Under the pieces are notes generated by a model, which had not been told where the DNA came from, made no database searches, and was given only the letters and a program-made list of their open reading frames with translations. A stretch of DNA of 64,000 nt from an uncultured bacterium (GTDB lineage: Bacteria; Oederibacteriota; JAAXVQ01; JAUVAV01), in assembly GCA_965371665.1 (NCBI GenBank), contig CBDUZI010000001.1:9411-73410 (forward strand). Reading direction: 5' to 3'. Below are positions 55,601 through 58,600 of the stretch, piece by piece. Both the position numbers and the translations under genes were made by a program. Position 1 is the stretch's first letter, and each line of letters opens with the position of its first letter.

Positions 55601-58600
55601 AGGACAGGCTGGTTAATCGCCCGCGGAGTACCGGCTTCTATTTTGTGGGTTACATGGCCTTCATCATCAATACGTATAAGGGGTTCCCGCGAATCAACCC
55701 AGAGCTGGTAATCGTGGTTAAAGGCTGCCTCGGTTCCATACGTTATGTCAGCTTCGTAGGCTAAGGCGCGGTCAAAGCTTTTAACCATCTTTTCCCCATC
55801 CCAGATGCTTACCACTGGCTGAGAGCTTTCCAAGTCATACTCACCTACGATGGCCACCGTGATGCCTAGAGGGGCTAGCAGGACTGCCATTTCCTCCCCT
55901 TGTTTAAGGGCTAAATCGATGTTCGGTGTGGACAGTTTAGTGCCTTGATTCAAGAGAGAGACCGCAAAAAGGCCCATGGCCGCGGCCTCGGTCTTGCCCT
56001 GGCCTGTTGCCAGTTGGAGGGCATATCCCACTGTGTCGATAGCCGGAATATCCGAGCGGAAGAGCAGGCGCACGAAATAAAAAACTTTCCTCCAGCCGCG
56101 GCGTTGCCTCATCTCAGAAAGAGCCAGGGCTGCCATGATTTGATTGCGATGCAGGGTAAAGCCTTCCAGCCGGATGCGGCTTTCAGGGTCGGATTCGGAC
56201 GCGGCCTGATCTCGTTTTTGTTTTTCAATGGTCACAGCGGCGATGGTCAGGGCTCGAATTCTTAGCGTTTCCAATGCCTGCTTGGCTTCTGCCAGATCCA
56301 TCCTTTGCAACTGCCTGCGGAGCCGATCGGTTTCCGCAAGCAGTTGAGGGAGGGACATTTTTTCAAATTGTACCCGGAGTTTGTTAACCTGGTTCGCCTG
56401 ATCACGAAGTTTGATCGTGGTTCTGCGTGAGGCAAAGGCCTGGTAGCGGGGCATGGTAAAATGATAGATGAACCAACCTCCGGCAATTAAACCGCTGGCG
56501 ATAAAAAACAGCCATGAGCCCAGGCCGACAAGAACCAAGCCGGTGACCAACCCTGCTGCCAATTGACCAAACTGCACGATCAGATAAAGTGAACTTACGA
56601 CACCGGCTGCCACTACCGGCATGACCAGATACGGCAAAAATCTTCCGGCCAGAGTCCTGAACTGTTTCTGGACTGTCACTAACTCGAGCCGCATCCGCTG
56701 TTCAGCCAGGAGGGCGCGGACGTGATCGATCACTGCGATAACGGCCCCCACTAGAATGAGAATGCAAATGCCCGTGCCTAAGCCTAAGCCAATCGCTTGC
56801 GGCAGCAAGATAATGACCGTTACGATGATGCCTCCCACCACCGGAAGTCTTTTGAAAATTTTGGTAAAATAAGCCTGAGTCTGTTCCCCTTCAGGTATAC
56901 CGGGAATATAATCACCGCTAATGGCAAGCTGCTCGGCCAGGGTCTCGGGCTTGAAAAGCATTCGAGTTCCTAAAACCGAAAAAAGCAGGATGATGGCAGC
57001 CACCACGAACACATAAGTCAAGGTCATAGGCGCGAGGACCACGCCAAACAAGGCGGGGGCTAACATGATAAGCATGGTGATCACAGCGCTCGACCCTATG
57101 GCCGCTACCACGCCAAAATAATCCATTTGTAGGGGCAGAATGCGTTCGCGCGGCTTCTTTTGCTCTGTTTGTTTAACATCCCGCGCCGACCGGATGGAAA
57201 TTTTATAGTATATCGTGTTCAGGGCAATCGCGAGAGCAACGGTGGCCAATCCTCCGATAAGGATAGGCAGACCGGAGAGGGAAAGTACACTGCCAGAAAC
57301 CAAGATTCCAGCGGTGTGAAGCAAATTCGGCAATACCATCACTCCGAACAGAACATAATTGGTCCGGCCGCCCAAGCCGCGCTTCTCTAACTGTGTCATG
57401 AACCATAATAAGACGACAGAGCCCAAGGTCAGACTAATAATCGCGACCAGTTGACTGCCCAAGGTTACAAAAATGTCAGGCATGGCTTGCACGAGCAGTA
57501 CAGCATATATCACTGCAATCCCAACCGAAATATATTTAATGTAGCGCTGGACCTGTTTTCGTCCGATTTCAGTTTTTTGAAGTTTTTTCAGAGGTGGAAA
57601 AACCAGGGTAATGCCCATTATAATCAAGCTAGCTAAGAAAAAGGGAGCCAGTCCCAGGCCGAAGATGGAAAGATTATCCAACGCCCCGCCTAGCATAAAG
57701 TTCATCCCACTCAGCGCCGCCGCATCGTTCAACCTTAGAAAGGTAAATAAAACCGGACTTACGCCTGGAATCGGCACACAGCAACCGATGAAATAAAGGC
57801 CGATAACACCTATTGTAATCAGCCCTCGTCTAACCAACACCCAGGGAATGCCTTGACTAAAGCGACGGAAGTAGATAACCGCATCTTCCTTGGCAGCCTG
57901 CATCCACTCCCGCCAGTTTAGTCTTTGTTCCACGGCAGGTTCCGCCGGCTCCCCGGCGGCGGTTTCCTGAACTACTCTCTGGGACGGTACGCTAGGTGCC
58001 TCTCCGTATATCCGGGTTATTTCCTCAATAGCTTTGGCCAGTTCATCGGGGCGCGAATCTCGAGTACGGAAATCCACAACCAGACGGTTGGCGTCTCTCA
58101 CAATTTTTAACAAAGTCTGGTTCAAAGCGGCTCGATCTACGGTTTCACCTCTGGCCAGATGCTCGTAGAATCTGCCTAACTGGGTAAGTTCGCTGGCCAA
58201 GTACTTCCCGGTTCGCTGCAAATAGGCCAGATAGGCTGAGCGTTCTTCCTCAGAAAAATACGCCATGCCTTCAGCAGTGTGGCCATATAGATAGGTTAGT
58301 TCCTGATCCAACAGCCATGCCTTTTCAACTAGAACGGCTTTTGCCGATCTGGCAATTTGAAGTCTTCCATGTGATTTTAAGTCGCGCAGGCGGGTATTTC
58401 GCGCTTCCCGAAAATCCTGCATGGTCATCCAAACATCCGTGCCTTCTAATTCTATATTGAGTTTCGCTATCGCCATTGCCAGTTCGGACGGCCTCATGCC
58501 CCGGCGCCGAAAATCCACGTTTTGGAAATCCCCTCTGCGGCGGCCGGCATCGAGCGTGATGTGAATCAAGGTTTTATTTAAGGCTGCCCGATCCAGGGCC

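Follow-up and report, generated by a model that had tools for sequence, protein, structure and literature searches.

A SecY channel and a SecA-like motor within one giant protein of the candidate phylum FCPU426

Introduction

Recent giant-gene papers have raised a problem that is still open, namely by what means bacteria insert and export proteins of 10,000-100,000 residues. The stretch of DNA that we analysed, 64,000 nucleotides in length and called the window below, is G000:C1:9411-73410, where G000 is the source assembly; other genomes and contigs are labelled in the same way. It comes from marine sediment and its lineage is the candidate phylum (division) FCPU426. The minus strand carries a single open reading frame (ORF) of 13,678 codons without a stop (G000:C1:35073-76109, about 41 kb), and the encoded giant protein contains a SecY domain followed by a two-helix hydrophobic hairpin and a SecA-like ATPase. 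SecY is universally conserved, and its gene normally stands alone. From its sequence we classify the arrangement as a natural fusion of SecY with SecA that lies inside the chain presumed to be its client; the phylum has hardly been studied. The fusion would act like an accessory Sec system. The reading that we prefer, with a probability of roughly 0.6, is that this module is a dedicated single-chain accessory Sec translocase handling the large extracytoplasmic loops that belong to the giant protein itself. The locus offers a concrete and testable answer to the general problem, namely that a private translocon and motor come with the client.

Results

A full-length SecY domain lies inside the giant frame

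An earlier, sequence-only reading of this DNA had placed a full-length SecY-like channel at window positions 56690-57880, inside a protein of more than 12,000 aa. Both parts of that claim are borne out. The likeliest start of the frame is an ATG at C1:76007, 2.6 kb outside the window, which gives a protein of 13,644 aa whose N-terminus is basic and then hydrophobic, as a signal anchor (MAEWHTPRRRVWTKIISILISV...). The translation of window 56389-58182 (minus strand, same reading frame as the giant ORF) was used as the SecY query. The Pfam SecY family PF00344 matches residues 172-483 of the query (E = 5.9e-41, 141.3 bits with a cut-off of 32.2) over positions 1-304 of the 306 in the profile, TIGR00967 matches residues 119-492 (profile positions 3-409 of 414), and residues 30-438 of Escherichia coli SecY are collinear with residues 111-491 in a phmmer search against PDB (E = 1.4e-35). 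These three alignments delimit the domain given in Table 1, at nearly the coordinates of the sequence-only reading. An AlphaFold2 model of the domain, built on an alignment of 14 sequences, has a predicted local distance difference test score (pLDDT) of 70 and a predicted template modelling score (pTM) of 0.64. The best 50 listed Foldseek matches of this model in PDB are all SecY or Sec61, with target-normalised template modelling scores of at most 0.80 (E. coli SecY, 5gae_g). Judged by its sequence matches and predicted structure, the embedded domain is a full-length member of the SecY/Sec61-alpha superfamily with the ten-helix channel fold.

Every motif given in the sequence-only reading is there (GGAL, SIFGLGLAPFFLASLIIMGIT, LLWFMTQLEKRGLG and FKPETLAEQLAISGDYIPGIPEGEQTQAY), with one difference: the first transmembrane (TM) helix reads VPIPG and not IPIPG. 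The plug motif NF.LGGAL and the IPG..G..T of the cytoplasmic C5 loop are retained, and canonical SecY has longer periplasmic loops. We assigned the pore-ring and R357 positions by alignment to the SecY of E. coli and the canonical SecY of the phylum, using the columns that we take, from the established literature, to be these sites. By this alignment, each of the six family members has hydrophobic residues at five of the six ring positions (L/W, F/Y, L, I/M/F and I/L/V).

A hairpin and a SecA-like ATPase follow the channel

The tenth TM helix of SecY and the SecA-like module are separated by a hydrophobic two-helix hairpin, which is conserved in 6 of the 6 family members. Both termini of SecY are cytoplasmic, so with two further helices the chain would be back in the cytoplasm, the side on which a SecA must lie; in this predicted topology the order SecY-hairpin-SecA should be topologically coherent.

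The ~1,100 residues that follow SecY are collinear with Thermotoga maritima SecA through nucleotide-binding domain 1 (NBD1), the preprotein-binding domain, NBD2 and the scaffold. The preprotein-binding region aligns to residues 273-525 of the T. maritima protein (E = 6.5e-14), and PF01043 (SecA_PP_bind) is above its cut-off in the corresponding modules of two relatives, G003 and G014. The module contains a Walker A motif (TGQGKT), a Walker B motif (DDEG) and motif VI (QLFGRVARQG), of which G..GK, DE and GR..RQG are invariant among five giant-type modules and canonical SecA. The two-helix finger reads LRMF..RDPLMRYK, compared with LRAY.QKDPLLEYK in the aligned SecA of the same genome, and its tip is aromatic (F or Y) in the aligned modules, which share the motif LR.[FY]...DP...[YF]K. 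The scaffold and wing family PF07516 is matched weakly, below its cut-off; the finger motif aligns, and the best fold matches are to full-length SecA structures. A model of the SecA part has a pLDDT of 70 and a pTM of 0.34, and its best 34 Foldseek matches are all SecA or SecA2. On sequence and model evidence, the predicted SecA-like ATPase appears complete, with Walker A and B, motif VI, the preprotein-binding domain and the two-helix finger. The sequence-only reading had suggested from the channel that the protein carries its own translocation pore. The apparently complete SecA-like motor after the channel in the same chain goes beyond what had been observed then and strengthens that suggestion.

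The embedded domains are extra paralogues in an intact frame

The source genome is a metagenome assembly of 165 contigs that is 98% complete. It has a canonical secY (445 aa, 376 bits) on contig C35, in the gene order S5-L30-L15-secY-adk-map, and a canonical secA on contig C30; the one secE match in the genome lies on a contig other than that of the giant gene. Identity between the embedded SecY and the canonical SecY of the same genome is about 30%. Since a separate canonical secY is present in the ribosomal-protein operon, where the sequence-only reading had advised looking for one, the embedded SecY is an extra paralogue. The embedded SecY and SecA are thus additional diverged paralogues and not the housekeeping genes.

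We also considered whether a canonical secY (and secA) had been mis-joined by the assembly, or separate genes read as one. Apart from the fact that the genome is a 165-contig metagenome assembly, no point in favour of such an artefact was found. The canonical genes are on other contigs and share only about 30% identity with the embedded copies, no stop codon interrupts the 41 kb, and the embedded order recurs in the assemblies G003, G014, G002, G004 and G006 and on a contig from the ENA. The stretch itself is present in three runs of one marine-sediment study. One 35-kb contig of about 100x coverage, which may be from the source sample, spans window positions 52000-60500, and in two other samples separate contigs of about 6x run across the two SecY borders as well as the SecY-SecA junction; these contigs cross the borders with zero differences. 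An artefact of this kind is therefore extremely improbable, and the mis-join that the sequence-only reading had raised is ruled out as far as the data allow by the independent assemblies in other genera and the bridging contigs. No RNA dataset was listed as containing the stretch.

The module is conserved across genera, rare and fast-evolving

Among 99 species genomes of FCPU426, six carry close copies of the domain, at 40-49% identity, five of them in the family of the window and one in a sister family. In all six it lies within a frame open to the contig limits and never forms a stand-alone gene. The frames have 13,678, 11,265 (G014) and 9,337 (G003) codons, and on short contigs 3,157, 2,007 and 1,773 codons. 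The SecY-hairpin-SecA block, about 1,800 aa long, is shared at 40% identity with the giant frames of G003 and G014, which belong to other genera. Comparison of the full frames revealed four shared blocks, namely the N-terminal domain, the GH5 region, the last ~760 aa and the SecY-hairpin-SecA block, the last being the longest collinear block among the compared frames. The GH5 region occupies a different position in the giant frames of the relatives, and in the middle of the giant protein about 7,500 aa cannot be aligned to them.

In G003 and G014, PF00344 scores 160-161 bits, and the Pfam order is SecY, SecA_DEAD, SecA_PP_bind and P-loop_SecA, with a TolC-like OEP domain about 2,000 aa later; in G014 an NTP_transferase (sugar-nucleotide) domain stands ahead of SecY. 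Neither the OEP nor the NTP_transferase domain was found in the giant protein of the window. A seventh copy is on ENA contig ena:ERZ25039480:contig_62891, with SecY, SecA_DEAD and a later faint OEP match. The giant frame on this contig is broken into many short gene calls, with SecY pieces of 279 and 305 aa, and the breaks look like frameshift noise of the assembly rather than a real split. We further noticed a 9,665-codon frame in G011 (G011:C8:54988-83982), which opens with an N-terminal anchor like that of the giant protein (...FPY..-AFE). A strongly diverged SecY-like domain (PF00344, E = 1e-22) directly follows the anchor, and no SecA module is detectable in this frame.

A HMMER search over 1.84 billion representative proteins gave 4,381 matches. 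Among the best 150 of these, four are of the giant type, all of them fragments, and the rest are SecYs of 250-530 aa with at most 36% identity. Two of the four fragments have NCBI records; both are annotated "hypothetical protein" and one is labelled FCPU426. Word-indexed protein searches gave no match among proteins of 1,048-2,990 aa, nor, with the SecY or the SecA NBD1 region, among proteins of 5,500-17,500 aa, which is weak evidence. A scan of a genome-contig collection with a single SecY-domain protein also gave no match; with an alignment as query, the scan recovered two FCPU426-type loci together with canonical SecYs, mostly from Planctomycetota, and the same alignment found only canonical SecYs, at 23-36% identity, among metagenome contigs. 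The SecY-bearing giant family is rare.

In a maximum-likelihood tree of SecY domains that contained no SecY2 sequence, the giant-type domains form one clade, with Shimodaira-Hasegawa-like approximate likelihood ratio test support of 98-100, apart from all canonical SecYs. The stem of this clade measures about 2.3 substitutions per site, so the phylogenetic placement proposed in the sequence-only reading resolves to a long-branched group of its own. The embedded SecY also stays below the cut-offs of the SecY2 models TIGR02920 (89.2 vs 249.6 bits) and NF009082 (96 vs 353 bits).

Layout of the giant protein and its neighbourhood

In the giant protein, about 60-70 hydrophobic helices are separated by soluble stretches of 440-2,489 aa; its features inside the window are listed in Table 1. 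The remaining TM clusters and a 14-helix region gave no significant Pfam match. A four-helix TM cluster (VIFCEFLAH.WDL ... GIPALLITLSLIAPLWISL) is present twice, about 1,030 aa apart, at window ~60528-63888 on the minus strand (residues 38-151 and 1072-1157 in window numbering), and the GH5-containing region matches several sites in the proteins of the relatives. These observations suggest module duplication and shuffling. The C-terminal ~760 aa (window 25663-27954, minus strand), for which no Pfam match was found, are the part of highest identity, at 47% to G014. In G003 the counterpart of this segment ends another, upstream giant frame of 5,532 codons, so module order varies between genera.

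Table 1. Positions in the window of the giant gene, its domains and the genes for large surface proteins downstream of it
Feature	Window position	Strand	Remarks
Giant ORF	25663..64000	-	12,778 codons inside the window; frame continues past the right end of the window
GH5 cellulase-like domain	62632..63345	-	Pfam; N-terminal soluble loop of the giant protein
SecY domain	56707..57852	-	ten TM helices; residues ~2916-3297 of the full-length protein
Extra hydrophobic hairpin	56464..56652	-	two TM helices after SecY TM10
SecA-like ATPase module	53209..56442	-	~1,080 aa; N-terminal helix, NBD1, preprotein-binding domain, NBD2, helical scaffold, two-helix finger
SecA_DEAD (PF07517)	55708..56430	-	Pfam E = 8e-16
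P-loop_SecA (PF21090)	54130..54789	-	Pfam 27.1 bits, cut-off 27
SecA wing/scaffold (PF07516)	53215..53559	-	weak; 17.7 bits, under the cut-off of 26.7
Downstream protein, 1,738 aa	within 1568-22316	-	DUF6259/NPCBM_assoc
Downstream protein, 1,204 aa	within 1568-22316	-	weak SlpA beta-barrel match
Downstream protein, 491 aa	within 1568-22316	-	FlgD_ig and a sub-threshold type IX secretion system (T9SS) sorting tail
Downstream protein, 592 aa	within 1568-22316	-	OmpA-family
Downstream protein	within 1568-22316	-	Fn3-like

Three giant frames, of 13,678, 7,289 and 3,041 codons, lie in tandem on the minus strand (G000:C1:35076-107406), and the giant gene comes last among them. They are separated by gaps of about 100-200 bp and together take up 72 kb, which is 2.4% of the genome. 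Phosphoglucomutase (PGM_PMM I/II) and HIT domains are found in the 7,289-codon frame, and the 3,041-codon frame contains domains of pyruvate phosphate dikinase (PPDK) and phosphoenolpyruvate synthase; cytoplasmic-type enzyme domains are thus built into these giant proteins. Directly downstream of the giant gene, at window 23496-25338 on the minus strand, are two ABC sugar-type permease genes (BPD_transp_1), which echo the carbohydrate-import genes reported beside the giant genes of Omnitrophota. Further downstream are the genes for large envelope or surface proteins. The host appears to be diderm, and its genome has many TolC-like genes.

By analogy with SecA2/SecY2 systems, which serve few dedicated clients, the module could instead be an active accessory translocase working in trans. 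Its clients would then be, for example, proteins that the neighbouring giant genes encode or secreted enzymes that degrade glycans, and the giant protein would be no more than a membrane platform. The same motif and fold evidence would fit this alternative, and so would the place of the gene at the end of the tandem array (3,041, 7,289 and 13,678 codons). The OEP domain of the relatives, in the same frame as their SecY, hints in addition at a trans-envelope export route. However, that domain was not found in the giant protein of the window, and the PGM, HIT and PPDK domains of the neighbouring giants are of the cytoplasmic type and not obvious secreted cargo. The simplest explanation of a motor tethered covalently inside a chain of 13.6 thousand amino acids (13.6 kaa) is that its client belongs to that chain, and we regard export in trans as unlikely.

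Discussion

A proposed private translocase for the giant protein

In the reading that we prefer, a translocase dedicated to its own chain, the ~1,800-aa internal module would consist of a SecY channel, a two-helix hairpin and a SecA-type ATPase held in the cytoplasm beside the channel. With ATP and the two-helix finger, the tethered motor would push polypeptide through the adjacent channel, as in SecYEG-SecA, and hydrophobic segments would leave through the lateral gate of the embedded SecY. The likeliest client would be the giant protein itself, either in cis or from one copy to another. SecA is needed for large periplasmic loops of membrane proteins, and the 60-70 helices, the long soluble stretches and a GH5 domain that is sensible only outside the cytoplasm favour a client in the same chain. 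By general translation rates, a 13.6-kaa chain would occupy a translocon for many minutes, and a private translocon could spare the essential one from jamming. We infer the activity, the topology and the identity of the client from the domains, their completeness and motifs, the order of fusion and its conservation across genera; on these grounds, the giant protein probably brings its own export machine.

Several findings weigh against this proposal. The embedded SecY does not reach the equivalog cut-off of TIGR00967 (148.1 vs 253.6 bits). The C5-loop arginine equivalent to E. coli R357, a residue important in SecA-driven transport, is P, A or T in all family members, and by alignment the ring position 187 (I187 in E. 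coli) is polar in most of them (T, G, I, Q, Q and N). The hairpin has no SecE or SecG match in a Pfam search of the translation of window 56389-58182 (E <= 1), and Pfam searches of this translation detected no SecE- or SecG-like partner within the giant protein. With about 2,900 aa between the N-terminus and the channel, the helices upstream of it and the GH5 loop need housekeeping machinery or post-translational handling. Distances within the giant-type clade are about 10 times those among the canonical SecYs of the same genomes, which indicates faster evolution. The near-complete relatives G007, G008 and G010 carry canonical genes only, and the module is thus accessory, patchy and dispensable for the lineage. 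Moreover, the confidence of both structural models is moderate, by the pLDDT and pTM values given above.

Some of these findings would be expected if the domains were exapted relics, the ten-helix bundle acting as a membrane anchor and the DEAD-type ATPase in remodelling or signalling, with no conduction of polypeptide. The fast evolution and long stem branch, the loss of R357, the polar ring position and the scores under the equivalog cut-offs all agree with this explanation, and earlier work on giants of Omnitrophota took the TM regions beside SecA domains as anchors. Against it, the plug motif, the five hydrophobic ring positions and the framework of the C4/C5 loops have been kept across genera at 40-49% identity. 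The same holds for the full set of ATPase motifs, the preprotein-binding domain and the aromatic tip of the finger; such retention is unexpected for a mere anchor. We consider relics quite improbable.

A bolder version of the proposal of a translocase acting on its own chain, which we put forward only tentatively and think somewhat doubtful, is that the giant protein is an 'autotranslocon'. It might use its fused channel and motor in cis to thread and integrate the remaining ~9,000 residues, and relatives with a TolC-like domain may build a whole export route from the inner to the outer membrane in one chain. The TM 'anchors' beside SecA in giants of other phyla may likewise be further diverged channels derived from SecY. 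The family alignment could serve as a seed for profile hidden Markov models to find such diverged channels beside SecA domains in other giants. In addition, a natural 1:1 unit of SecY and SecA bears on the long debate over the working stoichiometry of the translocase.

Comparison with known systems

The module resembles the housekeeping SecYEG-SecA in having a ten-TM channel with, by alignment, a plug and a largely hydrophobic ring, and a SecA with NBD1 and NBD2, the preprotein-binding domain and a putative scaffold and finger. It differs in that all of this is one chain, joined by an extra TM hairpin inside a 13.6-kaa protein and encoded outside the ribosomal operon. Unlike the housekeeping SecY, the embedded one has sub-equivalog scores, has lost the R357 equivalent, evolves about 10 times faster and has shorter periplasmic loops. 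With the accessory Sec systems (SecA2/SecY2 of Gram-positives; SecA2 of mycobacteria and clostridia) it shares the presence of a second, diverged pair of SecY and SecA, plausibly reserved for clients that are very large or hard to handle, and SecA2 structures are among the fold matches of the SecA part. In contrast to SecY2, the embedded SecY fails the cut-offs of the SecY2 models, and SecY, SecA and the presumed client form a single fused chain, for which Asp/Gtf partner genes are not known.

From Omnitrophota and Actinobacteriota, multi-pass giant proteins are known that have diverged SecA_DEAD and preprotein-binding domains after TM regions, carbohydrate-active domains and sugar-import genes nearby; a role in self-export was proposed for them (West-Roberts et al. 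2023, 10.1101/2023.11.21.568195). In that work the SecA parts are described as being without scaffold and wing, the adjoining TM regions are treated as anchors, SecYEG appears only as separate, non-syntenic genes, and no SecY domain is mentioned in the giants (10.1101/2023.11.21.568195). Similarly, a 2026 survey of Omnitrophota includes PF07517, and not PF00344, among the giant-protein architectures. By the features described, the protein studied here is like those giants in its very long ORF, many TM helices, embedded SecA_DEAD and carbohydrate context. It is unlike them in having PF00344 directly before SecA, an apparent scaffold and finger, and a host in the phylum FCPU426.

In the full-text literature searched we found no natural SecY-SecA fusion and no SecY as an internal domain, only an engineered fusion (PMC5562318). 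In proteoliposomes and supplied with SecE and SecG, that fusion roughly matched the unfused parts in the translocation of proOmpA (Sugano et al. 2017, PMC5562318). As in the giant protein, the C-terminus of SecY is joined to SecA's N-terminus, and the activity of the engineered fusion in vitro supports the reading that we prefer. The engineered protein is artificial and stands alone, with a flexible linker of 16 residues, whereas the fusion described here is natural, is linked by a TM hairpin and is part of a giant chain.

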